Assembly: GCF_009792795.1 (NCBI RefSeq)
Contig: NZ_VKHQ01000003.1
Span: 517,601-549,600, forward strand
Origin: Cognatiluteimonas profundi
GTDB lineage: Bacteria; Pseudomonadota; Gammaproteobacteria; Xanthomonadales; Xanthomonadaceae
Direction of reading: 5' to 3'
DNA length: 32,000 nucleotides
Part shown: piece by piece, positions 3,565-19,994 of the stretch
How positions within the stretch are numbered: position 1 is the first letter of the stretch
How the letters are laid out: every line of letters begins with the position of its first letter
Position numbers and translations under genes: made by a program
The notes under the pieces: generated by a model
Seen by the model: the letters and a program-made list of their open reading frames with translations, nothing else
What the model was told of the DNA's origin: nothing
The model's database searches: none

Positions 3565-4632
3565 TCAGCGGCCGGCCTCGAACACGCCGTAGTACGCCAT
3601 CAACGCCGTCGCGAAAATCCAGACGATCGTGATCGGAATGAACACCTTCCAGCCCAGCCGCATGATCTGGTCGTAGCGGTAGCGCGGGAACGTCGCCCGG
3701 AACCAGATGAAGCAGCTGGCGAAGAAGAACACCTTCGGGAACAGCCACCACCAGCCGTCGACGGACGCCACCGGGATGCCCATGCCGTGGAACGGACTGA
3801 GCCATCCGCCGAGGAAGAAGATCGAGGCCAGGAAGCTGACCAGGATCATGTTGGCGTATTCGGCCAGGAAGAACAGCGCGAACTGCGAACCCGAATACTC
3901 CACCATGTGGCCGGCGACGATTTCGGACTCACCCTCGACGACGTCGAAGGGCGCGCGATTGGTCTCGGCCACGCCGGACACGAAGTACACCACCAGCAAT
4001 GGCAGCAGCGGGAGCCAGAACCACTCGAACAGCCCGGCGTTGCCCGCCTGCGCCATCACGATGTCGGTGAGGTTGAGGCTGCCGGCCGCGATCAGCACGC
4101 CGACCATGGCGAAGCCCATGGCGATTTCGTAGCTGACGACCTGCGCGGCGGCGCGCATCGCGCCCAGGAACGCGTATTTCGAATTGGATGCCCAGCCCGC
4201 GATGATGATCCCGTAGACGCCCAGCGACGTCATCGCCAGCAGGTACAACAGGCCCGCATTGGCGTTGGACAACACGATCTTCGCGTCGAACGGCACCACC
4301 GCCCACGCGGCGAACGCGGGAACCAGCGTGATCAGCGGCGCCAGTACGTACAGGACGGGCTGCGCCTTCGCCGGCTGGATGACTTCCTTGAACAGCAGCT
4401 TGAAGACATCGGCGAATGCCTGGAGGATTCCCCGCCCCACGTACATCGGTCCGTGGCGGACATGCATCCAGCCAATCAGCTTGCGTTCCCAGACGACATA
4501 GAAGGCGACGGTGATGATCACCGGCATGGCGATCGCCAGGACCTTCAGCACGATCCAGACCAGCAGGCCCGCGGCGCCGAAAGACAGCAGCCAGTCGCGG
4601 AAGGGGTCGAACAGCGGCGCGATCTGCATCAT
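3565..4632 (-). CDS. nuoH: NADH-quinone oxidoreductase subunit H
   Basis: Track ORF 3565..5409 carries an artefactual Arg/Ala-rich N-terminal extension. The real start is ATGATG at 4632, overlapping the nuoG TGA. Product: [16 protein letters not shown]...[21 protein letters not shown]...[28 protein letters not shown]..., 355 aa. Confidence 0.94.
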
Positions 4633-6845
4633 GCGCTTTCGACCTCCACGCGCGCGGACGACAGGGCGGCCGTGGCGCCATAACCCGACTCGACCCACAC
4701 ACAGCCTTCCGCGACCTTGTCGGTGATGGCGACGGGCAAGGTTGCCGTGCCGTTGTCGTTGCGGATCTTCGCAACGGCGCCGTCGGTGATGCCGGCCTGC
4801 CGGGCAGTGTCGGGATGCATGACCGCGCGTGCGCCGAGCGTCAGTGGATGCGCCTGCAATGCCGCGGCACGACGCACGACGCCGTCGGTGCGATAAATGG
4901 CCTGCGACACGGCGACCTCGAGCCCCTTGCCGGCCGGCGCCGGCAATGCATGCCTGGCGACCGACACCTCGCGCGGCTGCAGACTGTCGCGCAGTCCCGG
5001 CAAATCCGTGAACGTGAAGCCGGCCGCGTCGAGCATGCCGCCAAGTGCGCGCAGCACGCGCCAACCCGGTTGCGCCTGGCCGGGCAGCTTGCCGCCGGCA
5101 ACCGCTCGTTGCTCGTGGCCTTCGAGGTTGGTCAGCGTCGCGTCGATCTCCGGCAACAGGCCGATCGGCAGGATCACGTCCGCCACCGCACGCGTCGAGG
5201 CGCAGGCGAAATGGCTGAAAGCGACAACCTGCGCACTGGCGAGCGCCTGCATGGCCTGGCCCTGCTCGGCGAAATCGAGGCCTGGCTCGACGCCATACAG
5301 CACGTAGGCGCTGCGACCTTCGCGCAGCATCTGCCGCGCATCGCGCGAAGCCGGAAGCACGCCGGCGCGCGTCAGACCGATTGCGTTGGCACCTTGCGGA
5401 ATGCGGCACAACGCCGCGCCCTTGCCTGCTGCGAATCGGGTCGCGGCGGCACGGATCGCGCTTGCGTGCGGGCCAGCCTCGGCGACCGCACCAATCAGGA
5501 TCACCGCATTGCTGGCTTCGCCGAGGTCGACCCTGGCCAGCGCGTCGGCCATCTGCGACGGCGGCACGATCTGCTTGCTGGCGATGTCGAAGGTGAAGTC
5601 GAAATCAATCGGGCTGACGACGTGGACCTTCGCCCCCGACTGCACGGCCTTGCGCACGCGCGCATGCAGCAGCGGCAATTCAAAACGCAGCTGCGAACCG
5701 ACGATGACGATGGCATCGGCCTTGCCGATGTCGGCCAGCGATCGGGCGAAGGGTTCGGCGACCGCGCCGTCGGATAGGTCGAGTTGCGAGATGCGGTGGT
5801 CGATGTTTCCGGTGCCCAGCGCCTCCGCGAGGCGGGCCAGCAATGCGCCCTCCTCGTTCGAGGTCGATGGATGCACCAGGATGCCCAGCTCGTCGGCGCC
5901 GTTGTCGCGCAGGATCTGCGCCGCGCGCGCGAACGCCTCGTCCCACGTCGCCGGCCGCCACTCACCGCCATCCTTGATCAACGGCTGCGTCGCGCGGTCC
6001 TCCGCATACAGGCCCTGGTGCGAGTAACGATCGCGGTCCGACAGCCAGCACTCGTTGACCGCTTCGTTGTCGCGCGGGACGGTGCGCAGGATGTCGCCGC
6101 GGCGCGCATGCAGGAACAGGTTGCTGCCCATCGCGTCGTGGTAACCGAGCGACTCGCGGGCGATCAGCTCCCAGGGGCGTGCGCGGAACCGGAACACCTT
6201 GTTCGTCAACGCGCCAACGGGACAGACGTCGATGACGTTGCCCGACAGCTCGGTCGACAGCGGCTTGCCGTCGTAGGTGCCGATCTGCAGGTTTTCACCG
6301 CGCAGCATGCCGCCGAGTTCGTAGGTACCGGCGATCTCCGCGGTGAAGCGGACGCAACGCGTGCACTGGATGCAACGTGTCATGTCGGTGGCGACCAGCG
6401 GACCGAGGTCCTCGTCGGCGACGACGCGCTTGCGTTCGCTGAAACGGCTGACCGAGCGGCCATAGCCGAGTGAGAGATCCTGCAACTCGCACTCGCCACC
6501 CTGGTCGCAGATCGGGCAGTCGAGCGGATGGTTGATCAGCAGGAACTCCATCACGTTGCGCTGCGCCTTGAGCGCCTTGTCGCTGCGCGTGCGGACCTGC
6601 ATGCCTTCCATGACCGGCGTGGCACAGGCCGGAGCCGGCTTGCCCATCTTCTCGACGTCGACCAGGCACATGCGGCAATTCGCGGCGATCGCGAGCTTGT
6701 CGTGGTAGCAGAAGCGCGGAATCGGGATGCCGGCCTTGTCGGCGGCATGGATGATCATCGAGCCCTTCGGCGCGGTCATCGACACGCCATCGATCTCGAT
6801 GGAGACATGGTCTGGCGGCGTCGGCGTCACCGGTTGCGCGCTCAT
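4629..6845 (-). CDS. nuoG: NADH-quinone oxidoreductase subunit G (75-kDa Fe-S subunit)
   Basis: 738 aa. N-terminal 2Fe-2S and 4Fe-4S cysteine clusters ([47 protein letters not shown]) are followed by a molybdopterin-oxidoreductase-like domain. Confidence 0.96.
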
Positions 6846-8206
6846 GCGGCCACCTGCTCGATGACGTTGCCTGCGCGCTGGTCATCGACCAGGAATCGCC
6901 GGTTGACGATCGCGTACTCGAATTCGTTCCAGTAATGACGCAGGAAGCCCTGGACCGGCCACGCTGCCGCCTCGCCGAATGCGCAGATCGTGTGGCCTTC
7001 GATCTGGCCAGCCGCGGCTTTCAGCATCTGCAGGTCGTCCAGCGACGCCTGGCCATCGACGATGCGCGTGAGCATGCGATACATCCAGCCGGTGCCTTCG
7101 CGGCAAGGGGTGCACTGCCCGCAGGACTCGGCGTAGTAGAAGCGTGCGATGCGCTGGCAGGCGCGGACCATGCAGGTGGTTTCGTCCATGACGATGACAG
7201 CGCCGGAGCCAAGACCCGAGCCGGCCTTCTGCAACGCGTCGTAATCCATGGTCAGGCCCATCATCGTGTCGCCCGGCAGCACCGGCATCGACGACCCGCC
7301 GGGGATCACGGCCTTGAGCTTGTGTCCGTTGCGCACGCCACCGGCGAACTGCAGCAGGTCCGCGAAGCTCGTACCGAGCCGTACCTCGTAATTGCCCGGC
7401 CTGGCGACGTGGCCCGATACCGAGAACACCTTGGGTCCGCCATTGTTGGGTTTGCCCAGGTTGAGGAACCACTCCGGTCCGTTGCGCACGATGGCCGGAA
7501 CCGATGCGTAGGTTTCGGTGTTGTTGATCGTCGTCGGCTTTCCGTAGAGGCCGAAGTTCGCGGGGAACGGCGGCTTGTAACGCGGCTGGCCCTTCTTGCC
7601 CTCCAGCGATTCCATCATCGCGGTCTCTTCGCCGCAGATGTAGGCGCCCGCACCGAGCACGTTGTGGATGTCGATGTCGATGCCGCTGCCAAGGATGTCC
7701 TTGCCCAGCCAGCCGTTCTTGTAAGCCTCGGCCGTCGCCTCTTCCAGGTGCTCGAATGGCTCGTGGTGGAACTCGCCGCGCAGGTAGTTGTAGGCGACGC
7801 TGCTTCCGGTCGCATAGCAGGCGATCGCCATGCCCTCGAGGACGGCGTGCGGATTGAACCGCAGGATGTCGCGGTCCTTGGCGGTGCCGGGCTCGGACTC
7901 GTCCGAGTTGCAGAGGATGTACTTGGTGCCCGCGCCCTTGGGCATGAAGCTCCATTTCAGGCCGGTCGGGAACCCTGCCCCGCCGCGGCCACGCAGTCCC
8001 GACTGCTTGACCATGTCGACGACCGCCGACGGCTCGATCTTCTGCTCGAGGATCCTGCGCAGCGCGCTGTAACCACCGGTCTTCAGGTAGTTCTCGTACG
8101 ACCACGGCTTGTCGAAATGCAGCGTCGTGTAGACGACGTTGTGTTCCTGCGGGGCCGGACCGACCGGGCCAGCGCCGCCTGCCGGATGCGTGTGTTCGTG
8201 CGCCAT
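6842..8206 (-). CDS. nuoF: NADH-quinone oxidoreductase subunit F (NADH/FMN-binding)
   Basis: 454 aa with [18 protein letters not shown] (FMN site), [14 protein letters not shown] and [12 protein letters not shown] (4Fe-4S). Overlaps the nuoG start by 4 nt. Confidence 0.96.
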
Positions 8207-8215
8207 GCCTGCTGC

Positions 8216-8743
8216 CTACTTCAAGCCGTCGAGCAACTCGTCGACCTTGTCGGTGTCGAGTTTCTCGTGGTAGTGACCATTGATGACCATCATCGGCGCG
8301 CCGCAGCACGCCGCGAGGCATTCTTCTTCGGGCTTGAGGAAGATGCGGCCGTCGGCGGTGGACTCGCCGAGCTTGCAGCCGAGCTTCTTCTCCGCATGCG
8401 CGACCAGCGCCTCGGCGCCGTTGAGCCAGCAGCTGATGTTGGTGCAGAAGGCGACGTTGTTGCGACCTACCGGATGGGTCTCGAACATCGAATAGAAGGT
8501 CGCGACTTCGTAGGCCCACACCGGCGGAATGCCCAGGTACTTCGCGACGGCGGCGATGAGTTCATCGCTCAGCCAACCACCGTTCTGCTCCTGCGCGGCG
8601 TGGAGTGCCTGCAGGACCGCCGAACGCTTGCGGTCGGGCGGGAATTTCGCGGTCCAGTGGTCGATATGCGCGCGCGTGGCATCCGTCAACGCGACCAGCG
8701 GATCGACATTGCGCGCTGCTTCGAAGTTTCCCGTTGCCTTCAT
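8216..8743 (-). CDS. nuoE: NADH-quinone oxidoreductase subunit E (2Fe-2S)
   Basis: 175 aa with thioredoxin-like 2Fe-2S subunit motifs ([10 protein letters not shown] ... [15 protein letters not shown]). ATGA overlap with the nuoD stop. Confidence 0.94.
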
Positions 8744-10050
8744 CGATCGATCTCGCCAAAGACCACGTCATAGGTACCGATCATCGCCACCACGTCGGCC
8801 AGCATGTGGCCTTTCACCACTTCGTCCATCGACGACAGGTGGGCGAAACCCGGGGCGCGCACATGCATGCGGAACGGCTTGTTGGCGCCGTCGGACACGA
8901 GATAGCAGCCAAGCTCGCCCTTCGGCGCCTCGACCGCGCAGTAGGTCTCCCCGGCCGGCACGCAATAGCCTTCGCTGAACAGCTTGAAGTGGTGGATCAA
9001 GGCTTCCATGTCGTCCTTCATTTCCGCGCGCGACGGCGGCGCGACCTTGAAGTTGTCGAGCATCACCGGACCCGGGTTCGCCTTCAGCCACGCGACGCAC
9101 TGCTGGATGATGCTGGCCGACTGGCGCATCTCGGCGACACGCACCAGGTAGCGGTCGTAGCAGTCGCCATTCGTACCGACCGGGATGTCGAACGCGACCT
9201 CGGCGTACTTGGCGTAGGGCTGCTTCCTGCGCAGGTCCCATTCGACGCCCGAACCACGCAGCATCGGGCCGGTCATGCCCCAGGCGAGCGCGAGATCCGG
9301 CGGGATCACGCCGATGCCGACGGTGCGCTGCTTCCAGATGCGATTGTCCGTGAGCAGCGTCTCGTACTCGTCCACGCGCTTGGGGAAGTCGAGAGCGAAT
9401 GCGTGCAGGTAATCGAGCATCGAACCATCGCGCCACTCGTTGAAACGCTTGAGCTTCTCGCCCTTGCGCCACGGGGACTCGCGATAACGCGACATGGTTT
9501 CGGGAAGATCGCGGTACACGCCGCCGGGGCGGTAATACGTGGCGTGCATGCGTGCGCCGCTCACGGCCTCGTACACGTCCATGAGCTCTTCGCGCTCACG
9601 GAAGGCGTAGAGGAAGACGGCCATGGCGCCGAGGTCGAGCGCGCTCGATCCGATCCACATCAGGTGGTTCAGGATGCGCGTGATCTCGTCGAACATCGTG
9701 CGGATCCACTGCGCCCTCGCCGGCGGCTCGATCCCCATCAGGGTTTCGATGGCACGCACGTAGACGTGCTCGTTGCACATCGGCGAGACGTAATCCAGGC
9801 GATCCATGTAGCCGATCGACTGGTTGAACGGCTTGGACTCAGCGAGCTTCTCGGTGCCCCGGTGCAGCAATCCGATATGCGGATCGGCGCGCTGGACGAC
9901 TTCGCCGTCCATTTCCAGGATCAGGCGCAACACGCCGTGGGCCGCCGGATGCTGCGGTCCGAAATTGAGCGTGTAGTTGCGGATTTCCTTGTGCAGTTCG
10001 GCCGAATTGCTGGCGAAGCCGAGGCTGGCTGGCTGGATGACCGTGCTCAC
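8740..10050 (-). CDS. nuoD: NADH-quinone oxidoreductase subunit D (49-kDa)
   Basis: 436 aa with [24 protein letters not shown]...[12 protein letters not shown] and a C-terminal VVFGEIDR. Separate from nuoC, not a fused CD subunit. Confidence 0.96.
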
Positions 10051-10886
10051 CTGGTGGCCCCCGCCGGCGTGGGCGTCGGCCCGGTGGACGGAAGCGCCGC
10101 GTCGGCGGGTCCCAGCGTGCTGGCGATTTTCAGGTCGTGGTCCTCACCCGCAGCGGTCGCATAGCGGGCGTCGTCGCGGATCACGCGCGGTACCAGGACG
10201 CGCGGCTCGACCGAGGTGACCGGCTCATAGATGACGCGCTGGCGCTCGGGGTCGTAGCGCACCTCGACGTTGCCGATCAAGGGGAAGTCCTTGCGGAATG
10301 GATGGCCGACGAATCCGTAATCCGTGAGGATCCGGCGCAGGTCAGGGTGGCCGCTGAAGATGATGCCGAACATGTCGAATGCTTCGCGCTCGAACCAGTT
10401 CGCCACCGGCCACAGGTCGGTCACCGAGGGGATCACGGGAAGCGAATCATCCGGCGCGAAGCAGCGCATGCGCAGGCGCTGGTTGTGGCGAACCGACAGC
10501 AGCTGCAGCACCGCGGCGAAGCGGCGCTCGGGCACCAGCGTGTCGATCGTGCCTTGCGGCTCCGCGGACTGTTCGCGCAGCACGTCGCCGTAGCGCAGGC
10601 GGCCGGTGCTCCGGCCCTCGACGCCACGGGAAAATCCTTCCGACGAGACATCGGTGTCCCACTCGTCGCTGCCATGGCCGAGGTAGTCCATCCCGGCGAC
10701 ATCGATCAACTGCTCGAAGCCGAAATCGTCGCGCAGCTGGCGGCAGGTGTCGTGCCACGCATCGGCTTCGACCACCATGCCGACTTCGCCACGGGGCTCG
10801 TCGACGCGGACGACGGCATCGGCGAATCGCTGGCGCAGGCGCGTCGCGAAGGCGGAAGCCGATTCCCTCGGCAGATCGGGCGTCAT
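10047..10886 (-). CDS. nuoC: NADH-quinone oxidoreductase subunit C (30-kDa)
   Basis: 279 aa with [46 protein letters not shown] overlaps at both ends (nuoB stop, nuoD start). Confidence 0.94.
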
Positions 10887-11458
10887 TCGCGCAGTCCCGT
10901 CTTGACGGCGCCGAAGTTGGTCGCGCGGCGGATCTTCTTCTGCAACTGCAGGATGCCGTAGGTCAGCGCTTCAGCGGTCGGCGGGCAGCCGGGCACGTAG
11001 ATGTCGACCGGCACGATGCGATCGCAACCGCGCACGACCGCGTACGAATAGTGGTAGTAGCCGCCGCCGTTGGCGCAGCTGCCCATCGAGATGACCCATT
11101 TGGGGTCGGGCATCTGGTCATAGACCTTGCGCAAGGCCGGCGCCATCTTGTTGACCAGCGTGCCGGCGACGATCATCACGTCCGACTGTCGCGGCGATGG
11201 ACGAAAGACCACGCCGAAGCGGTCCAGGTCCAGGCGCGCGGCGCCGGCATGCATCATCTCGACCGCGCAGCACGCCAGGCCGAAGGTCATCGGCCACATC
11301 GAGCCGGTGCGCGCCCAGTTCAGCAGCGCATCGGAACTGGTGGTGACGAAGCCACGCTCGAGCAGCGGGTTTCCGCTGTCCGGGATGAGGATGTCATCGA
11401 CCCGGCCTTCCGGCAGCGGGTTGTTCATCAACCCATCGATCGTCTGCCTCACTCCCAT
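10883..11458 (-). CDS. nuoB: NADH-quinone oxidoreductase subunit B (20-kDa, N2 cluster)
   Basis: Internal start of track ORF 10883..11869: [18 protein letters not shown]...[18 protein letters not shown]...[16 protein letters not shown]...VPGCPP, 191 aa. ATG at 11458 overlaps the nuoA 3' end by 10 nt. The upstream extension of the track ORF is out-of-frame nuoA sequence. Confidence 0.93.
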
Positions 11459-11805
11459 TCCAGCGCTCCCTTCTTCCAGACGTAGGCGAAGCCGATGACC
11501 AGCAACGCCAGGAACACGCCCATCTCCACCAGCCCGAACACGCCGAGTTCGCGGAACACGAGTGCCCAGGGAAACACGAAGGCGATCTCGAGGTCGAAGA
11601 CGATGAACAGGATGGCGATCAGGTAATAGCGCACGTCGAACTGCATGTGCGCGTCCTCGAACGCGGGAAACCCGCATTCGTAGGGCGACAGCTTCTCGGC
11701 CGTCGGGCGCTTGGGGCCGAGGACATTGCCGATGACGATCAGTGCCACACCGATTCCGGTGGCCACCATCAGGAACAGCAAGGTCGGCAGGTATTCGGCC
11801 AGCAC
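11449..11805 (-). CDS. nuoA: NADH-quinone oxidoreductase subunit A
   Basis: 118 aa, GTG start at 11805 preceded by GAGAGGA. Sequence [26 protein letters not shown]...[41 protein letters not shown]. First gene of the operon. Confidence 0.92.
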
Positions 11806-11829
11806 GCGCGTCCTCTCGATTGGCTGCAG

Positions 11830-11849
11830 CGCCCGCGTTGCCGCGGGCG
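11830..11849 (-). terminator. GC-rich stem-loop in the 55-nt segment between the tRNA remnant and nuoA. It may be the native hairpin that followed tRNA-Leu.
   Basis: Plus strand reads cgcccgcg-ttgc-cgcgggcg: a perfect 8-bp stem with a 4-nt loop. No U tract follows it on the minus strand, so its role as terminator versus leader structure is unresolved. Confidence 0.3.
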
Positions 11850-11860
11850 GTCGAAACTAA

Positions 11861-11895
11861 TGGTGCCAAAGGGGGACTCGAAAAGTCGACCTAAG
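11861..11895 (-). repeat. int-distal att site: degenerate copy of the tRNA-Leu 3' end
   Basis: tggtgccaaagggggactcgaa (11861-11882) matches tggtgcccaaagggggactcgaa (19910-19932) except for a 1-nt C deletion. Weaker similarity continues through cgacctaag (variable-arm region) to about 11895. The T-stem 5' strand is not conserved, so this copy is non-functional. Confidence 0.85.
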
Positions 11896-11936: not shown

Positions 11937-11959
11937 CTACCCCCAAACCTACCCCCACG
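11937..11959. repeat. Tandem pair of CTACCCCC (GGGGGTAG) motifs, int-distal arm; candidate integrase arm-type sites
   Basis: ctacccccaaacctacccccacg is identical at 22 of 23 positions to 19767-19789 (ctacccccaaagctacccccacg), in the same orientation, 54 nt inside the att core. Confidence 0.6.
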
Positions 11960-12228
11960 ATGCGCCCGCTAGGCGGTCGGCAATGTGCAGGGGCGAATGA
12001 GGCGGTAGCCGCATAGTTTAAAGAGCGCCGCCAAATCACGCCAGCCCAGCAAGCGCTACGCCAGCAGCTATACACGGCTCACTTACGGGATCTGCCTCCT
12101 GGCCCGGTTTGGCCGACTGCCGCCTTCATGCGACCTCGCGCGCGGGCGCGTACTCGTCAGCAAACTTCACGGATGGCAGGGCTAGTGCGCGACCGGCCTT
12201 CTCGCCGCGCGCCGACAGGACCAGCAGC

Positions 12229-12552
12229 CTATGCACATACCGCCCTGCCGCAACCTACCCTCTTGCCGGCGTTAGAGCCCACCTCCTCCAGCCGGCGCGC
12301 CCCAGATTGCATGAGGTAGCACCAGGGTCGAGCTCGACCACCTGGAAAACCTTGCCGCTTCGTTATCCACCGCTCCACGAATCGGCGGCCTTGCGCCAGG
12401 CTGGCCGCTTGGGCCACCAAGGTGCATCCGCGCCACGTCACTTCCGTTTGGTAGTGCCGGCCATTCGGTTTAACGGTAGCAACGCACACATATCGGAAAT
12501 GGAGGAAGGCCCGATCCTCATAATCGATCCAGCGGTAGTCTTGTCGGAGCAT
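12229..12552 (-). CDS. Hypothetical protein, 107 aa, possible paralog of ORF 15025..15330
   Basis: The N-terminal 65 aa have a protein-like composition (MLRQDYRWIDYEDRAFLHFRYVCVATVKPNGRHYQTEVTWRGCTLVAQAASLAQGRRFVERWITKRQG). Three collinear blocks resemble the ORF at 15025..15330. No obvious SD, and the C-terminal tail looks low-quality. Confidence 0.4.
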   Translation of the reverse strand: MLRQDYRWIDYEDRAFLHFRYVCVATVKPNGRHYQTEVTWRGCTLVAQAASLAQGRRFVERWITKRQGFPGGRARPWCYLMQSGARRLEEVGSNAGKRVGCGRAVCA

Positions 12553-12634
12553 GCCCAGAGCTTATGGACGGGCGTCCCATGTTTTGCGACAGTCCAGCGC
12601 GGGGGCGCAAGCGGCGCCAGGGCAGAGGGGGCGC

Positions 12635-12928
12635 GTGGACACAAAGCTAAAGGCCGGTGCCGTGTTCAAACCAAACGGACTCCACCGCGATGCCACCATT
12701 GATGGAGATCCGCCGAATTATCTCTGGTGCTTGCATTGTGAGCGTGCCTACGTTCGTGGCGAGTACCGCCCGGTGCGTGACCTGCAAATGTGCCCTTATG
12801 CCGACTGCGCTGGAGACACGGTGATTGATGCTTGGGCTTGGGAGTCAATCCGAGAGGAGAACCCAACCTACCCGGAGAATCCAGTTGAGGGTGTCGTCTA
12901 CCCTATGTATGGCAAGGCCGTGCCCTAA
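12635..12928 (+). CDS. Small zinc-ribbon-like hypothetical protein
   Basis: Contains WCLHCERAY...QMCPYADCAGD (CxxC ... CxxxxC) and an aromatic-rich C terminus (DAWAWESIREENPTYPENPVEGVVYPMYG). In-frame GTG at 12635 follows GAGGGGG at about 5 nt. The track's longer start at 12551 adds an Ala/Gly/Arg-rich, unconvincing N terminus. Confidence 0.5.
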   Translation: MDTKLKAGAVFKPNGLHRDATIDGDPPNYLWCLHCERAYVRGEYRPVRDLQMCPYADCAGDTVIDAWAWESIREENPTYPENPVEGVVYPMYGKAVP

Positions 12929-12973: not shown

Positions 12974-13147
12974 CTACGCGGCGACAGAAGCGTTTAAGCG
13001 CTGCCACACTTCTTCGCGATGCACGGGCACGTCCATAGGGGCTTGAATGCCGAGCTTAATCTGCCCGCCTTGGACAGCGATGACGGTCACCGTAATTTCG
13101 TTTCCGATAGCGATTGTCTCGCCCTCCTTGCGCGTAAGAATCAGCAT
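12974..13147 (-). CDS. csrA: Carbon storage regulator CsrA/RsmA family RNA-binding protein (island-borne paralog)
   Basis: Internal start of track ORF 12974..13225: [57 protein letters not shown] (57 aa). It aligns along its whole length with the canonical CsrA pattern MLILTRR.GE...IGD...TVL...G.QV+IG..AP..V.VHREEI. AAGGAG lies 7 nt upstream of ATG 13147. Confidence 0.85.
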
Positions 13148-13413: not shown

Positions 13414-13719
13414 ATGAAATACGCATTGCTTGGGTTTGCTCTGCTCGCCTTCACTGGCGTCTCGTTGGCTCAGTCACATCAAGTCAAAGGGTACGTCCGC
13501 AAGGACGGAACCTACGTTGCCCCGCATCAGGCGTCGAACCCAAATGCCTACCGCTACGACAACCGCAGCTCACAGACGAATGGCGGCACCCAGCGGGACG
13601 AATACAGCGCAAAGCCCGCAACGAATAAGCGCAATCCGAGCTACGGCGCTTACGACAACGATAACGATGGGAACCCAAACTCGTCCGATTCAACACCTAA
13701 CAGTAATGACAACAACTAA
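13414..13719 (+). CDS. Small secreted protein with an Asn/Asp-rich tail
   Basis: Internal ATG at 13414 after CAGGAGAAG. Sec signal peptide MKYALLGFALLAFTGVSLAQ, then VKGYVRKDGTYVAPHQASNPN and a low-complexity tail NPSYGAYDNDNDGNPNSSDSTPNSNDNN. AT-richer than the flanks. Confidence 0.7.
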   Translation: MKYALLGFALLAFTGVSLAQSHQVKGYVRKDGTYVAPHQASNPNAYRYDNRSSQTNGGTQRDEYSAKPATNKRNPSYGAYDNDNDGNPNSSDSTPNSNDNN

Positions 13720-13736
13720 AATTTAGGCGCCAAAAA

Positions 13737-13760
13737 GCCCGCTTCGGCGGGCCAGTTTCA
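13737..13760 (+). terminator. Rho-independent-type hairpin after the secreted-protein gene
   Basis: gcccgc-ttcg-gcgggc followed by cagtttca. It is preceded by aaaaa, so it could act in both directions. Confidence 0.5.
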
Positions 13761-13794
13761 GTGGGGGTCTCGAAACACTAGAGGGGGGTATCGC

Positions 13795-14109
13795 TTGAGC
13801 TTAAGCATGCAAGGGAAATCCGCTTGGTTGCGCGCCTCAGACGTGGTGGCGCTCGGCGTCGGCCTGGCTACCGGACTATTTTTACTCGGCACCTACGGGG
13901 GGCGCTTTCCGCCGGAATACTCGCTTGTCGTCAACGTGGCGTTTCCGCTCGCGCTTACGGCTTGCTGGTACCTAGTGGCGCGCGACCTGTCTGCCAAATT
14001 GGCGGCCCGTAGCCCAGGCAAATCGCATGCGGGGCTTGCGGCATTGCTCGTAGGCGCCAACGTCGCGACCTTTCTTCTAATCGCGGCCATCGTGGGCATG
14101 GTCAAGTGA
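13795..14109 (+). CDS. Small inner-membrane protein (about 3 TM helices)
   Basis: TTG start 6 nt after GAGGGGGG (alternative ATG at 13807). Hydrophobic segments VVALGVGLATGLFLLGTYGG, SLVVNVAFPLALTACWYLVA and AGLAALLVGANVATFLLIAAIVGMV. Its stop overlaps the next gene's GTG (GTGA). Confidence 0.6.
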   Translation: MSLSMQGKSAWLRASDVVALGVGLATGLFLLGTYGGRFPPEYSLVVNVAFPLALTACWYLVARDLSAKLAARSPGKSHAGLAALLVGANVATFLLIAAIVGMVK

Positions 14110-14402
14110 GGTCGGCAGCGATTGCGTCGTCGCTCTTGCTGGCGCTGGCGAATCACCCTGCCCTCGCCACCCAACCGCAATGCGACGCCATCAGTGATGC
14201 TGCCGATCAAGTCGAAACAGCCGTGGATGACCTCAACGACTGCATCCGGCGCGCAGATTACTCCGATGACTGCTCACTGCAAGCGCGCGACGTGCGTGAC
14301 TCGACCGACGAATACGAGGAAGCGATCTCGACGGCCGAATCCGATTTTAATGGAGAAGCCGAAGACGTCTGCCGCCCGAAGTCTAAGGCTTATCACCTCT
14401 AG
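14106..14402 (+). CDS. Small secreted acidic four-cysteine protein
   Basis: Signal peptide MRSAAIASSLLLALANHPALA. The mature part is Asp/Glu-rich with 4 Cys (QCDAISDAADQVETAVDDLNDCIRRADYSDDCSLQ...EDVC). Translationally coupled to the membrane-protein gene. Confidence 0.6.
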   Translation: MRSAAIASSLLLALANHPALATQPQCDAISDAADQVETAVDDLNDCIRRADYSDDCSLQARDVRDSTDEYEEAISTAESDFNGEAEDVCRPKSKAYHL

Positions 14403-14481
14403 CGGAAGTCGGGCTACGATTGGGTTCACTGAAGCGCGCAGATGCAATCTGCAAACGCGCGCATATCCTGGGGAGGATGGA

Positions 14482-14778
14482 ATGGATCGGAAACTAGCTG
14501 GATTGATGTTGCTGGCACTTTCAGGCTGCGCTTCAAACTCAGGCGTGGTCGCAATGGGGCCGGACACATATTTTGTCAGCCGCCAAGCCGCGACCGGATT
14601 TACCGGGGCGGGATCACTTAAGGCCGATGCGATGGCGGAGGCTGGGCGGTTTTGTACTAAGCGCGGGGAAACGGTTCAAGTGGTGAACGTGACCGAGTCG
14701 CACCCCCCTTACATACTCACAAACTTTCCCCGCGCTGAACTAGAGTTTCGTTGCACGAAGGAGGTCCCTTCGTCATGA
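14482..14778 (+). CDS. Small lipoprotein, paralog 1
   Basis: Internal ATG at 14482 after GGGGAGGA. Lipobox in MDRKLAGLMLLALSGCAS, then VAMGPDTYFVSRQ...AMAEAGRFCTKRGETVQVVNVTES...EFRC. The upstream part of track ORF 14122..14778 is an artefact. Confidence 0.7.
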   Translation: MDRKLAGLMLLALSGCASNSGVVAMGPDTYFVSRQAATGFTGAGSLKADAMAEAGRFCTKRGETVQVVNVTESHPPYILTNFPRAELEFRCTKEVPSS

Positions 14779-15044
14779 AGATCCCTTTCTTGCTCGCGGT
14801 TACTGCAATTGCAGGATGCGCCAGCACAAGTGCACCCGTTGCGGTGGGGCCTGACACTTACACGCTGTCCATTTCACAGATGGGCGGGATGAAGAGCCAC
14901 GGATCGGTGCGCGCCGATGCACTAAGAAAGGCTAACGAGCATTGCGGCAGCCTTGGGAAAACGATGGTGTTGCAGACTTCGGAATCCAGCGGCGCACGTG
15001 GCTGGACACCGATTGAGGAGGCTGTCACTTACAGGTGCCAGTAA
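14775..15044 (+). CDS. Small lipoprotein, paralog 2
   Basis: ATG at 14775 overlaps the preceding stop (ATGA), with AAGGAGG upstream. Lipobox in MKIPFLLAVTAIAGCAS, then VAVGPDTYTLSIS...ALRKANEHCGSLGKTMVLQTSES...TYRC. Collinear with paralog 1: the GPDTY motif and two conserved Cys. Confidence 0.7.
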   Translation: MKIPFLLAVTAIAGCASTSAPVAVGPDTYTLSISQMGGMKSHGSVRADALRKANEHCGSLGKTMVLQTSESSGARGWTPIEEAVTYRCQ

Positions 15045-15330
15045 CGGCAAGGGGACCAACCCCAGTGCTGGCAACTTCCGCTATCAGCCGCTCTGCATGG
15101 ATCTCTGCCCATCGATTTGCCATGCGCAGGGCGAGCGCCTTGCTTGCCAGCACTGAGGTTCCCCGACAAGCCCAATCCTTATGCCGGTTGGTCGTTGTGC
15201 ACCAGCCGGCGCCATCCACACGCGGTGACACCAGCACCACCTCTTTCCCATACATGCCACCGATGCGCAGGCACAGCTTCCCGGATGCTTGGAAGTCAGG
15301 GAACCAGGCGAAGTCGGCCGCGAGAGTCAT
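15025..15330 (-). CDS. Hypothetical protein, 101 aa, possible paralog of ORF 12229..12552
   Basis: MTLAADFAWFPDFQASGKLCLRIGG...HKDWACRGTSVLASKALALRMANRWAEIHAERL shares three collinear blocks with the other ORF (DYRWIDYEDRA / LHFRY / WRGCTLVAQAASLAQGRRFVERW). No SD. It begins right after a terminator-like hairpin and overlaps the lipoprotein 3' end by 20 nt. Confidence 0.35.
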   Translation of the reverse strand: MTLAADFAWFPDFQASGKLCLRIGGMYGKEVVLVSPRVDGAGWCTTTNRHKDWACRGTSVLASKALALRMANRWAEIHAERLIAEVASTGVGPLAVTGTCK

Positions 15331-15381: not shown

Positions 15382-15912
15382 TTACCTGGGTCTCTGCCGG
15401 TGCTGTTTCAGGTTCGCCAGCGCGCGCAGCTTTCCCTCTGGCGTCCGGGGACCCGTCGCGCATCCGCCGTGCCACTTGCACCGCTGCTTGCCAGGCTGAC
15501 TCTTAGCCTGGCACGGTTTCCCATCACGATGCCGTCGGGCGCCGCAGATTACGCGCCGGCTGGCCTGTTTCGCCCTGTTCTCAGCGAGCCACGATTCCCC
15601 CCAGGACGGCAGATCGCTACCGAACTCACGCGCGGGCGCGCGTATGGCAGCAGAAATTCCGGCAGCATCGGCCGAAGTCATTGGCGCCTCTACTTCGCCG
15701 TACTTTATTCCGGTCAACTCGGCCCACTCGATGACGATGGCATCGATAACCCCGCTGTTTGTGCATAGCGGTAGATAAGGCCCCCGTTTGGAATCGATCG
15801 CCGCCAGTGCCTGCGGACTTGGCGTGTAGTCGATGCGAACCAGGCGTGCGCGACGTGCGCGTTGCATTTTGGCCAGGTGCGCGCGGTCCTTGGACAGATA
15901 GCCATCGCTCAT
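15382..15912 (-). CDS. HGGxSTG-domain protein (phage/island-associated, function unknown)
   Basis: 176 aa. C terminus ICGARRHRDGKPCQAKSQPGKQRCKWHGGCATGPRTPEGKLRALANL fits the CGA..R.G.PC......G..RC..HGG.STGPRT.EG pattern, with Ala replacing Ser. GGGGAGGAAG lies 6 nt upstream of ATG 15912. Confidence 0.72.
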   Translation of the reverse strand: MSDGYLSKDRAHLAKMQRARRARLVRIDYTPSPQALAAIDSKRGPYLPLCTNSGVIDAIVIEWAELTGIKYGEVEAPMTSADAAGISAAIRAPAREFGSDLPSWGESWLAENRAKQASRRVICGARRHRDGKPCQAKSQPGKQRCKWHGGCATGPRTPEGKLRALANLKQHRQRPR

Positions 15913-16030: not shown

Positions 16031-16942
16031 TCAGGCGGCATCCCGGAGCTTGTCCAAGCGACGCTTTACTGTTGACTTGTCACAGCCCACCACCTCGGCA
16101 ATTTTTGCCAAACTTAAGCCCTGGGCTTGCAACTCCAGAAGCTGGCTATGGTCTTCGGCTTCCGTCAAGCGCCAGGCCATGCGGCCATCATCGCCAGTGA
16201 TCAACTGCGCCTCGACAGGTGCAACCGCGTCGCCATATAGCGAGCGAGCCTTGTCAAAGTGCACAGAGAAACGCGCGCCTTGCTCGGGTCGGTAGTCCGT
16301 CGGCCGTTGCAGCTTGATCACAACGTCAAGCAGATCTTCCCGTTTGCTCGTTCCGCGCTGGCTGCCGCCCTTCCCCGCGTGATGGATGAAAATCAAGGTT
16401 CGGCCCTGCGCCCGCTGCTTGATCGCCCATTGCCCGACTGGTTCCCAGCCTTCTGCCTCGTTTTCCTTGGCCCCATGAATGAGCGAGCTCAGGTTGTCTA
16501 GGATGATGACGCGGGCATTGCCCACCTGTCCGCCGATTACGCTTTGCCCGTCGGCATCGCCCAGGTTGGGCATGTCGTTGAACGGCTGCACGTCGCGGGA
16601 TACCACCCGCAGCATTCCGTTTTCCGGCTCCCTTCCGGTGGCCTCGAACAAGGCTCGCCAGCGCGCTTGCATATCAGGCGCAGGCATTTCGCCGTCAACG
16701 TATAGGACTGGCGTGGGCTTCGCGGCAGTCCATTGCAGGAAGGCGCCGCCTGTCGCCAGGGCGTGTGCTATGTGCATGGCGAAATGCGTTTTGCCCACTC
16801 CGCGCGCCGCATAAATCATGGCTAGCGATGCCGACTCCAGCCATGGCGACAACAACACCTCGCGTGGTGGAATGTCTAAGCGGATGAAGTCTCGAACATC
16901 ATGCACGGCCAGCGCCGGCGCATCGGTTGCCCACTCTTTCAT
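16031..16942 (-). CDS. AAA_25/RepA-like (RecA-fold) ATPase with C-terminal HTH
   Basis: 303 aa. Walker A AARGVGKTH, Walker B RVIILDNLSSL, IFIHHAGKGG...RGTS motif, and C-terminal HTH LSLAKIAEVVGCDKSTVKRRL. This is the typical replication/helicase-like ATPase of small integrative elements. Confidence 0.82.
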   Translation of the reverse strand: MKEWATDAPALAVHDVRDFIRLDIPPREVLLSPWLESASLAMIYAARGVGKTHFAMHIAHALATGGAFLQWTAAKPTPVLYVDGEMPAPDMQARWRALFEATGREPENGMLRVVSRDVQPFNDMPNLGDADGQSVIGGQVGNARVIILDNLSSLIHGAKENEAEGWEPVGQWAIKQRAQGRTLIFIHHAGKGGSQRGTSKREDLLDVVIKLQRPTDYRPEQGARFSVHFDKARSLYGDAVAPVEAQLITGDDGRMAWRLTEAEDHSQLLELQAQGLSLAKIAEVVGCDKSTVKRRLDKLRDAA

Positions 16943-18414: not shown

Positions 18415-18505
18415 ACGGTGCCCCCCCTAGTGCCCTTAAAAGAGCCGCCCCAGCGCCGCTTGGTCACGGCGTCTTTGCCCCGTCGGGCTAGGCGCGGTTA
18501 TGCGG

Positions 18506-19732
18506 TCATTTCGCCTGGCGCTTGAACGCAATCACGTTAGCGCCTTTTTTCAACTGGTCCAGATAGTCGGCCCATGCCTGCATCATTGTCGTGCGCTCGG
18601 CCATGTACTGCGCGCGGTTGTAGGCGGCCCGGACGTTGTTGCGCTCGGCGTGCGCGAGTTGACGTTCGATCACGTCGGGTTTCCAGCCCATTTCATTCAA
18701 GCGCGTCGATGCCATCGCGCGGAAGCCATGCCCCGTCATCGTGTCCTTGTCGTACCCCAGCCGCCGAAGTGCGCCATTGACCGTGTTTTCGGACATGGGG
18801 CGGTCGCCCGTGCGCAGGCTCGGGAAACAGTAGCGACCGCGTCGGGAAGGCGTCGGGCCGGTCAAGGGTTGCAACTCGCGAAGGATGGCGACGGCCTGCG
18901 ACGGCAGCGGCACGGCATGGGCCTCGCGCATTTTCATTTTGCCGGCGGGGATCCTCCACATGGCGGCATCCAGGTCGAGCTCGGCCCACTCCATTGCCCG
19001 CAGGTTGCCTGGGCGAGCGAACAGCAGCGGAGCCAGCTTCAGTGCGGCCAGCGTTACGGGCTGCCCGGTGTAGGTGTCGATGGTGCGCAGCAAATCGCCC
19101 ACGTCGGCGGGGTCAGTGATCGCCGCGCGCGCCGTGGAAGTAACCGGGGTTAGGGCGCCGCGCAGGTCGGCCGAGGGGTCGCGATCAGCGCGGCCCGTGG
19201 CGATGGCGTAGCGAAACACCTGCCCGATGCGCTGCTTCACCCGGCGCGCCGTTTCATGGTGTCCGCGCGTCTCGATTACTCGAAGCACCGCTAGAACGTC
19301 CGGGGCCGCGATTTCAACCATGGGCCGGCTGTCCAGCTTGGAAGCCATGCCCAACAGCCACTCGGCCTTGGTGGCGGTGACTGGTGCCAGCGTGGCCCGT
19401 TGCTTGTCCAGCCACTCAGTAGCGATGGCGCCAAAGGTGTTGGCAGCGGAGAGGGATGCACGGGCCTTGCCCGCCTTGCGCTCAGACGACGGGTCGCGGC
19501 CATCCCGCAGCAGATCGCGGGCAGCATCGCGACGCTTGCGTGCCTCAGCCAGCGTGACCTCGGGATGCACCCCAAAGGACAACAGGCGCTCCCTGCCGCC
19601 GTGGCGGTACTTCATGCGCCAGTAACGGCCAGCTGGCATGACGTGCAGGAACAGACCGCCGCCGTCGAAATGCTTGCCCGGGCCTGCGGCGCGGATCGCC
19701 AGAGCCGTTAGCTTGCCGGAGTCATTCGCCAT
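18506..19732 (-). CDS. int: Tyrosine-type site-specific integrase, P4-like (DUF4102 arm-binding N-domain)
   Basis: 408 aa. N terminus LTALAIRAAGPGKHFDGGGLFLHVMPAGRYWRMKYRHGGRERLLSFGVHPEVTLAEARKRRD is the typical DUF4102 pattern. Catalytic region: HGFRAMASTRLNEMGW...ERQLAHAERNNVRAAYNRAQY. Adjacent to the tRNA 3' end. Confidence 0.93.
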   Translation of the reverse strand: MANDSGKLTALAIRAAGPGKHFDGGGLFLHVMPAGRYWRMKYRHGGRERLLSFGVHPEVTLAEARKRRDAARDLLRDGRDPSSERKAGKARASLSAANTFGAIATEWLDKQRATLAPVTATKAEWLLGMASKLDSRPMVEIAAPDVLAVLRVIETRGHHETARRVKQRIGQVFRYAIATGRADRDPSADLRGALTPVTSTARAAITDPADVGDLLRTIDTYTGQPVTLAALKLAPLLFARPGNLRAMEWAELDLDAAMWRIPAGKMKMREAHAVPLPSQAVAILRELQPLTGPTPSRRGRYCFPSLRTGDRPMSENTVNGALRRLGYDKDTMTGHGFRAMASTRLNEMGWKPDVIERQLAHAERNNVRAAYNRAQYMAERTTMMQAWADYLDQLKKGANVIAFKRQAK

Positions 19733-19735
19733 GAC

Positions 19736-19796
19736 CTACCCCCAAATAACGGCGCCCTGCCGTCCCCTACCCCCAAAGCTACCCCCACGTACCCCC
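19736..19796. repeat. Cluster of CTACCCCC (GGGGGTAG) motifs between int and the tRNA; candidate arm-type integrase sites
   Basis: Full copies at 19736-19743 (3 nt upstream of the int ATG on the minus strand), 19767-19774 and 19779-19786, plus a partial TACCCCC at 19790-19796. The 19767-19789 pair matches 11937-11959. Confidence 0.6.
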
Positions 19797-19840
19797 GGCT
19801 GCAATGGGCCTCGTTGGGACGCCTCAGGAACACAAGGCAA

Positions 19841-19909: not shown

Positions 19910-19932
19910 TGGTGCCCAAAGGGGGACTCGAA
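19910..19932 (-). repeat. int-proximal att core (last 23 nt of tRNA-Leu)
   Basis: tggtgcccaaagggggactcgaa is repeated at 11861-11882 with a single-base deletion. Confidence 0.85.
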
Positions 19933-19994
19933 CCCCCACGACCTAAGTCGCTACCACCTCAAGGTAGTGCGTCTACCAATTCCGCCATCTGGGC
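19910..19994 (-). tRNA. tRNA-Leu (anticodon GAG), class II with long variable arm, CCA encoded
   Basis: Reverse complement GCCCAGATGGCGGAATTGGTAGACGCACTACCTTGAGGTGGTAGCGACTTAGGTCGTGGGGGTTCGAGTCCCCCTTTGGGCACCA folds as a cloverleaf: acceptor GCCCAGA/TTTGGGC, anticodon stem CTACC/GGTAG with loop TTGAGGT, T arm GGGGG-TTCGAGT-CCCCC. Confidence 0.93.

Follow-up and report, generated by a model that had tools for sequence, protein, structure and literature searches.

Five small envelope-protein genes of a Cognatiluteimonas profundi island, best read as a mosaic of three cargo modules, include a pair from a widespread lipoprotein family

The five small plus-strand genes described here, designated P1 to P5, occupy positions 13414–15044 of a 32,000-nucleotide (nt) stretch of Cognatiluteimonas profundi DNA (contig NZ_VKHQ01000003.1, positions 517,601–549,600; the whole stretch is called the window) and lie within an approximately 8-kb island of the int-alpA type. 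The cluster is best read as a mosaic of three unrelated, independently acquired cargo modules, namely P1, P2-P3, and P4-P5. The lipoproteins P4 and P5 belong to a widespread, unnamed family, for which neither a Pfam or NCBIfam model nor a structural relative was found, and they would act as a pair in exclusion or protection. The probability of this explanation as a whole, comprising the three-module mosaic in the island and the exclusion or protection role of the P4-P5 pair, is put at about 0.4. The features of the cluster are as follows.

13414–13719, plus strand: P1, 101 amino acids (aa)
13728–13749, strand not assigned: GC-rich terminator-like hairpin between P1 and P2, the T run being stronger on the minus strand; the plus strand has an A run
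13795 (TTG start) or 13807 (ATG start) to 14109, plus strand: P2, 104 or 100 aa
14106–14402, plus strand: P3, 98 aa, GTG start
14434–14462, plus strand: hairpin GCGCGC-AGA-TGCA-ATC-TGCA-AAC-GCGCGC in the P3–P4 spacer (GCAGAT-GCA-ATCTGC repeat with GCGC(GC) flanks)
14482–14778, plus strand: P4, 98 aa
14775–15044, plus strand: P5, 89 aa

Neighbourhoods and anatomy of the five genes

Relatives of P4 were collected at 99 loci (80 genome, 17 viral, and 2 prophage loci), and at none of them was a homologue of P1, P2, or P3 located within about 8 kb of the P4 relative. Likewise, the loci around the relatives of P1 contained no homologues of P2–P5, and all five genes were found together in none of the approximately 110 related loci. 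The island at locus L101 is related to that of the window, with an integrase that is 60–80% identical in segments, small open reading frames (ORFs) that are 50–77% identical, and a P1 homologue that is 78% identical, and it lacks P2–P5 as well as the genes for CsrA, the AAA_25 protein, and the HGGxSTG protein. For P2, the only match among 1.84 billion representative proteins, in a scan without a word index, was P2 itself, and for P3, likewise, only the self match was obtained among 5.8 billion proteins. Together with the terminator-like hairpin after P1 and the spacer before P4, these results indicate that the modules are independent.

The claim of the original prediction that the five genes constitute one system thus fails the neighbourhood test that the prediction had itself put forward. 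One co-functional, surface-acting envelope device, composed of membrane, secreted, and lipoprotein components, is highly improbable: although five adjacent, small, envelope-targeted genes on one strand, with two translationally coupled pairs, would fit such a device, P2 and P3 have no homologues, P1 and P4/P5 never occur together in the approximately 110 other loci, the L101 island possesses P1 without the rest, a terminator-like hairpin follows P1, and the P4-P5 pair is found alone behind CI repressors. Small envelope-targeted genes that follow one another on an island do not have to constitute a system, and the run in the window is here read as three unrelated modules.

The anatomy of the block itself agrees largely with its earlier description. 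All five ORFs are present, with lengths of 89–104 aa, and the same five were called by an independent gene caller on the identical public contig (Logan, L001), in which P2 is 100 aa long. The GTGA overlap of P2 and P3 at 14106–14109 and the ATGA overlap of P4 and P5 at 14775–14778 were read in the sequence. Shine-Dalgarno (SD) sequences had been ascribed to all five genes; those of P1 (AGGAGA), P2 at its TTG start (GAGGGGGG), P4 (GGAGGA), and P5 (AAGGAGG) are clear, whereas that of P3 is weak, suggesting that translation of P3 probably depends on coupling to P2.

The features of the encoded proteins were judged by simple sequence rules (hydropathy, the lipobox pattern, and a cleavage-like site). 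For P1, a single N-terminal hydrophobic segment followed by the cleavage-like site VSLA/Q is consistent with the proposed secretion. For P2, the assignment of about three transmembrane segments agrees with three hydrophobic windows, at residues 14–34, 42–62, and 78–104. For P3, which had been described as a secreted acidic protein with four Cys residues, the isoelectric point of 4.15 and the four Cys residues were confirmed, whereas the leader is only moderately hydrophobic, with no 17-residue Kyte-Doolittle window reaching 1.5, and secretion is plausible but not firm. The two predicted lipoproteins carry the lipoboxes LSGC (residues 13–16 of P4) and IAGC (residues 12–15 of P5).

The structured element that had been noted between the two coupled pairs is present as a hairpin with a folding energy of -15.5 kcal/mol (z = -2.3). 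It was rejected as a known RNA or a terminator, as it has no Rfam match and no U tract, and it occurs as a single copy in the window. The hairpin at 13728–13749 may act as a bidirectional terminator; a minus-strand gene upstream of it is not apparent. The terminator-like hairpin after P1 and the 79-nt structured spacer before P4 suggest that the cluster probably comprises two or three transcription units. A search of the cluster for sigma-70-like promoters found none, and 13728–13749 is the only terminator-like hairpin.

No family could be named for any of the five proteins from the sequence, and this was also the outcome of the Pfam, NCBIfam, and PADLOC scans. The PADLOC scan of all five proteins gave no match at E ≤ 0.1, the Pfam, NCBIfam, and PHROG searches gave no exclusion family at E ≤ 1, and no specific structural match was found for any of the five.

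The P4/P5 lipoprotein family and its genomic position

P4 and P5 are paralogues, with 38% identity in BLASTP (E = 2e-15). Both fit the lipobox pattern [LVI][ASTVI][GAS]C, the Cys of which is invariant in 40 family members, and both have Ala at position +2 after this Cys. The second genes of tandem pairs also bear lipoboxes. Members of the P4 family are about 90–115 aa long and share the motifs GCAxNSGVV, SRQAATGF, and PPY[ILV]xGNFP and two conserved Cys residues. P4 is a canonical member that has all of these features, with LSGC, SRQAATGF, PPYILxNFP, and the conserved Cys58 and Cys91, and is 52–81% identical to 38 aligned family members. Neither the lipobox Cys nor the two further Cys residues vary among the aligned members, and SRQAATGF and PPY[ILV]xGNFP hardly do. 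P5 represents a divergent subfamily, in which the scaffold and the Cys pair are kept, both loop motifs are missing, and the motifs GGMKS and GWTP are present.

The family comprises more than 270 protein clusters and gave 207 matches in species-representative genomes from many phyla, the hosts including Beta-, Gamma-, and Deltaproteobacteria, Nitrospira, Acidobacteriota, Planctomycetes, Omnitrophota, Verrucomicrobiota, and others. Members also occur on 17 IMG/VR viral contigs, and distant relatives reside on 13 small (2–7-kb) plasmids of Enterobacteriaceae, Aeromonas, Acinetobacter, and Moritella. The spread of the family is thus scattered over genomes, viral contigs, and small plasmids. In long forms of 155–170 aa (P0037, P0042, and P0067; loci L005 and L007), a linker leads to a SHOCT domain (PF09851) at the C terminus.

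An AlphaFold model of P4, built from 40 sequences, shows a beta-alpha-beta-beta domain with no repeats (predicted local distance difference test score, pLDDT, 85). A search of the family profile against the sequences of the PDB yielded chance immunoglobulin matches only, which were discarded. No characterised homologue of P4 or P5 was found in the literature, in which only the analogues Ltp, Cor, and Lpp were encountered.

In nine of 18 independent viral and prophage loci, the family gene is immediately preceded by a same-strand gene for a CI-type repressor, with a gap of 0–60 nt in all but one. The upstream repressor has both HTH_3 and Peptidase_S24 domains at L086, L088, L093, and L098, and Peptidase_S24 alone at L085, L087/L089, and L100. 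A regulator with only a helix-turn-helix (HTH) domain precedes the family gene at L002, with a gap of 0–60 nt, and at L091, with a gap of 345 nt. Here, L087 and L089 were counted as one independent locus, and L111 and L112 are the same prophages with Pfam-labelled genes. The order in L111 and L112, namely a cro-like (Cro/YdaS-like) gene, a divergent cI, the lipoprotein gene or genes, and then recombination genes, is that of a classic immunity region. At two further loci (L003 and L084), the family gene lies one or two genes behind an S24 protein. By a rough reckoning for a prophage of 40–60 genes, the chance of a random gene occupying the slot behind cI is about 2%. By analogy, this position would imply that the lipoprotein is expressed as long as the element resides in the host.

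A canonical and a divergent copy occur in tandem in six other loci (L039, L058, L081, L085, and L087/L089). At L058, an island of Rhodanobacter whose integrase shares 57% identity with that of the window, the two genes overlap by 4 nt, as they do in the window. For L087/L089, the gene order also matches the window, a P5-type gene with GGMKS and GWTP comes second, and the pair lies right behind cI. The recurrence of the tandem pair indicates that the pair is the unit that moves.

Beyond the second copy, no companion gene emerged. All-against-all clustering of the ORFs that lie up to 4 kb from the lipoprotein gene at 83 loci revealed no conserved partner, and a Pfam scan of the downstream neighbours at 78 loci revealed no recurrent one. 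The context of the family member at L113 is an island with integrase and transposase genes. The member at L114 (597–5930) is flanked by an ISAZ013 transposase on one side and DruA (Druantia) and a PemK toxin on the other, an arrangement that resembles a defence hotspot. In the cI operon of the prophage at L098, the next gene after that of the lipoprotein belongs to the Adhesin_E family (8237–8698; PF16747, E = 3e-19), so that this site carries another cargo gene for the envelope.

Candidate functions of the P4-P5 pair

In the explanation favoured here, P4 and P5 would be exported by the Sec pathway and lipid-modified at the lipobox Cys. The Ala at +2 suggests that both would then be directed to the outer membrane, on its periplasmic side, where each is predicted to form a small, disulfide-stapled beta-alpha-beta-beta domain. 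Both would be expressed constitutively by the resident element, much as the homologues in prophages would share a transcript with the CI repressor of the lysogen. Binding of the two proteins to a conserved envelope component, or to a part of an incoming phage or element, would block entry or damage, so that the pair would provide superinfection exclusion or envelope protection to the benefit of the carrier element. The position behind cI, the export and lipidation signals, and the carriage by phages, plasmids, and islands would together fit element-encoded protective envelope lipoproteins.

Several observations weigh against this explanation. A Foldseek search with the P4 model gave no match with E < 0.001, the best values being 0.057 in the PDB and 0.013 among the predicted viral structures of BFVD. 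No match to P4 was obtained by tblastn against 50,697 sequenced phage genomes, and the PADLOC scan likewise contained nothing for P4 or P5. The identity of 50–65% across phyla is unusually high for an exclusion protein; such proteins are usually narrow in distribution and fast-evolving, and the conservation of the P4 family suggests a conserved target. With regard to position, the upstream neighbour in the species-representative genomes was an HTH_3 protein at only 12 of 79 loci and an S24 protein at two, many of the others being housekeeping genes, and no CI repressor gene lies upstream of P4 in the window itself. The assignment to the outer membrane uses the +2 rule of E. coli, which may not hold in Xanthomonadales. 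Finally, no homology to Cor, Llp, or the mEpimmI Lpp proteins was detectable in Pfam, NCBIfam, PHROGs, the PDB sequence search, or Foldseek.

Among the characterised systems, Ltp of the Streptococcus thermophilus phage TP-J34 is a superinfection-exclusion lipoprotein that is encoded in the lysogeny module, transcribed in the prophage, and scattered as a moron among phages and bacteria (PMC3952083). The prophage relatives of P4 occupy a corresponding site, immediately behind the repressor gene, although no repressor gene precedes P4 in the window. Ltp combines a spacer rich in serine with a repeat domain for binding to the tape-measure protein, whereas P4 and P5 are predicted to be single beta-alpha-beta-beta domains of 75–83 aa with one disulfide, and no sequence or structure match to Ltp was found.

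Phage exclusion has been shown experimentally for Lpp021 and Lpp010 of the mEpimmI coliphages and for Cor (PMC11893012). Cor (phi80, N15, and HK022), Llp (T5), and the mEpimmI Lpp proteins are small outer-membrane lipoproteins that a resident phage makes and that keep other phages from using a receptor or from delivering their DNA, and they resemble P4 and P5 in size and have the same lipobox. Apart from the lack of detectable homology, they differ in that the mEpimmI Lpp genes lie in the structural gene cluster, whereas the prophage relatives of P4 lie behind the repressor, and in that those families are narrow, whereas the P4 family retains its cross-phylum identity. The original prediction had likened the whole block to phage lipoproteins of the Cor and Llp type; this likeness survives for the context of two of the five genes, P4 and P5, whose prophage and viral relatives lie behind the CI repressor, and does not extend to sequence or fold kinship.

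The rexA-rexB genes of lambda are expressed in the lysogen and co-transcribed with cI, and they encode cytoplasmic or inner-membrane abortive-infection proteins. The slot is the same as that of the P4 relatives in L111 and L112, directly downstream of cI on the same strand and opposite a divergent cro-like gene, whereas P4 and P5 are predicted to be exported lipoproteins.

Instead of protecting against entry, P4 and P5, and also P1, could be cargo for lysogenic conversion or fitness, with roles in outer-membrane homeostasis, stress tolerance, adhesion, or metal binding, a reading considered somewhat unlikely. Many family members are chromosomal and have housekeeping neighbours, the Adhesin_E-family gene at L098 follows the lipoprotein gene in the same operon, some P4-family copies are fused to SHOCT, and P1, which is probably disordered, has a motif that resembles the calcium-binding motif of thrombospondin type 3. 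The location directly behind CI at 9 of the 18 loci, with the expression in the lysogen that it would imply, is equally compatible with fitness cargo and with exclusion, and the context therefore does not separate the two.

It is unlikely that P4 and P5 are instead periplasmic inhibitors or orphan immunity lipoproteins directed against an effector of a type VI secretion system (T6SS) or of the bacteria-killing type IV secretion system of Xanthomonadales (X-T4SS), a lysozyme, or a peptidoglycan hydrolase of a phage or element. The conservation across phyla and the invariant loop motifs SRQAATGF and PPYILGNFP would fit binding to a conserved enzyme, P4 and P5 are predicted to be periplasmic lipoproteins, and the copy at L114 lies in an apparent hotspot of defence or toxin-antitoxin genes. 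The X-T4SS immunity proteins of Xanthomonadales are lipoproteins, and the host belongs to this order. P4 and P5 also share with the T6SS and X-T4SS immunity lipoproteins and with lysozyme inhibitors of the MliC/PliC type a small size, a predicted location in the periplasm or at the outer membrane, and conserved loops, which in the known proteins bind the target enzyme, but they differ from them in having no adjacent effector gene and no fold match. The immunity idea, which the original prediction had also raised, was weakened as no effector-like neighbour recurs at the 79 upstream and 78 downstream loci or occurs in the window; in addition, the structures of known immunity proteins and lysozyme inhibitors gave no fold match, and the position in the cI operon of prophages is atypical of effector-immunity genes.

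Within exclusion and defence, a bolder proposal, regarded as quite unlikely, is that the P4-type lipoproteins are an undescribed envelope-acting class that spans phyla, by which mobile elements (prophages, from their cI operons, small plasmids, and int-alpA islands) close periplasmic entry through binding to a universally conserved envelope component, and that the canonical and the divergent copies form a heterodimer. Such a heterodimer would explain the recurrence of the translationally coupled pair. If exclusion or protection is the function of P4 and P5, their family, with members in more than 200 species of many phyla, would be a new and unusually widespread group of lysogen-expressed lipoproteins. 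Its high conservation would imply that the target in the Gram-negative envelope is itself conserved, and identification of this target could uncover a common step in the entry of phages or DNA.

P1, the P2-P3 pair, and the island

For P1, 78 homologues were found, which are 48–78% identical across the full length. P1 also matches phrog_29674, of unknown function, with E = 1e-7, the sole PHROG match to the block; tblastn of P1 against the 50,697 phage genomes gave no match. P1 has the motifs V.GY.RKDGTYV..H, QRDEYS, and DNDNDGxxNxxD, and the features common to the family in the alignment are the signal peptide, V-x-G-Y-x-[RK]-x-[DN]-G-T-Y-V, Y-R-Y-[DN]-N, Q-R-D-E-Y-S, and D-N-D-N-D-G-x-x-N-x-x-D. 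The last of these resembles the calcium-binding thrombospondin type 3 consensus DxDxDGxxDxxD. Two thirds of the mature protein consist of N, D, S, P, G, T, or Q, and this composition suggests that P1 is probably disordered. The contexts of the family are mobile or variable, comprising the integrase island at L101, a locus with a serine recombinase, a SHOCT protein, and a CsrA gene (L107), and positions beside gspC among transposases and toxin-antitoxin genes (L103–L106). Judged from its sequence and from these contexts, P1 is probably a secreted, largely disordered member of an unnamed family that rides on mobile elements.

The element at L107, with its serine recombinase, is unrelated to the island of the window. 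Its CsrA gene (6457–6630) encodes a protein 55–60% identical to the CsrA of the island and lies 1.4 kb from the P1 homologue. The association of CsrA and P1 may not be due to chance.

For P2 and P3, codon statistics and the statistics of G+C at the three codon positions (GC1, GC2, and GC3) favoured the proposed frames over the other five, and the pattern GC1 > GC2 < GC3 is that of the island genes with homologues. P2 is a basic protein. A single-sequence AlphaFold2 model of P3 shows helices at residues 22–50 and 56–81, with a core pLDDT of 70–86, which form a helical hairpin. A structure search matched this model to generic helical hairpins only, and no specific structural relative was obtained. 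Judged from the positions of the Cys residues in the model, two disulfides could staple the hairpin. P2-P3 is read here as a lineage-specific, translationally coupled pair, predicted to consist of a small membrane protein with three segments and an acidic, disulfide-bearing helical hairpin.

The NCBI-sourced protein records that were retrieved contain P3 as a protein of only 59 aa and P4 as one of only 74 aa, whereas 98 aa were called for each in Logan. The shortened records lose the leader of P3 and the lipobox of P4, and such cargo is thereby hidden from routine screens.

It is doubtful that P2 and P3 are instead chance open frames in GC-rich island DNA, in which case the cluster would contain three genes only. 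Their lack of homologues in the databases searched, the NCBI record of P3 as a 59-aa protein, the weakly hydrophobic leader and weak SD of P3, and a second open frame at 14122–14778 that overlaps P3 would all be expected of chance frames, and the sole other copy is identical, so that it provides no comparative test. Real genes are favoured by the best codon score of the six frames and the GC1 > GC2 < GC3 pattern shared with the homologue-bearing island genes, by the exact stop-start overlap and the good SD of P2, by the independent gene caller, which called both ORFs, and by the helical hairpin predicted with confidence for P3 from a single sequence.

The other features of the window that bear on the island are as follows.

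~3565–11869, minus strand: nuo operon, which precedes the low-G+C stretch
11862–11882, strand not assigned: left island boundary, a direct repeat of the tRNA-Leu 3' end (TGGTGCCAAAGGGGGACTCGAA), from a repeat search and sequence reading
12974–13147, minus strand: CsrA gene, divergent from P1 (Pfam CsrA, E = 1.8e-23; 57 aa as called in L001)
15382–15912, minus strand: HGGxSTG-domain protein, 176 aa (NCBIfam NF041373, E = 4e-14; also phrog_6177)
16031–16942, strand not stated: AAA_25 and HTH protein (Pfam)
18433–18498, minus strand: int-alpA RNA motif, directly downstream of the integrase gene (Rfam RF02996, 36.5 bits; gathering score 35.8)
18506–19732, minus strand: tyrosine integrase of the island (Pfam Arm-DNA-bind_3, Phage_int_M, and Phage_integrase)
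19910–19994, minus strand: tRNA-Leu(GAG), the integration target, whose 3' end (19910–19932) is the right-hand copy of the boundary repeat

The boundary repeat is exact over 17 nt (11866–11882 and 19916–19932) and extends to 21 nt with one gap at 11862–11882 and 19910–19932. The repeats of the tRNA-Leu 3' end at both sides bound an island of approximately 8 kb, and the match to RF02996 groups it with the int-alpA-type elements. Beyond tRNA-Leu(GAG) lie tpiA and glmM. The G+C content of the stretch after the nuo operon is 0.57–0.62, and that of the five-gene cluster is 0.57–0.59, compared to 0.62–0.72 in the rest of the window. The term "HGGxSTG" was not mentioned in any of the papers searched.

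A minus-strand ORF of 101 aa (15025–15330) runs toward P5 and shares the last 20 nt of that gene; neither a family match nor a homologue in the related islands was found for this ORF. The plus-strand ORF at 12551–12928, also in the island, has a CxxC...CxxxxC pattern, a weak coding score, and no family match; if real, this Cys-rich ORF may be a further plus-strand gene besides the five-gene block. Just inside both ends of the island, repeats of the form CTACCCCCAAA(C/G)CTACCCCCACG occur at 11937–11970, 19728–19746, and 19767–19800, and these are candidate arm-type binding sites for the integrase.

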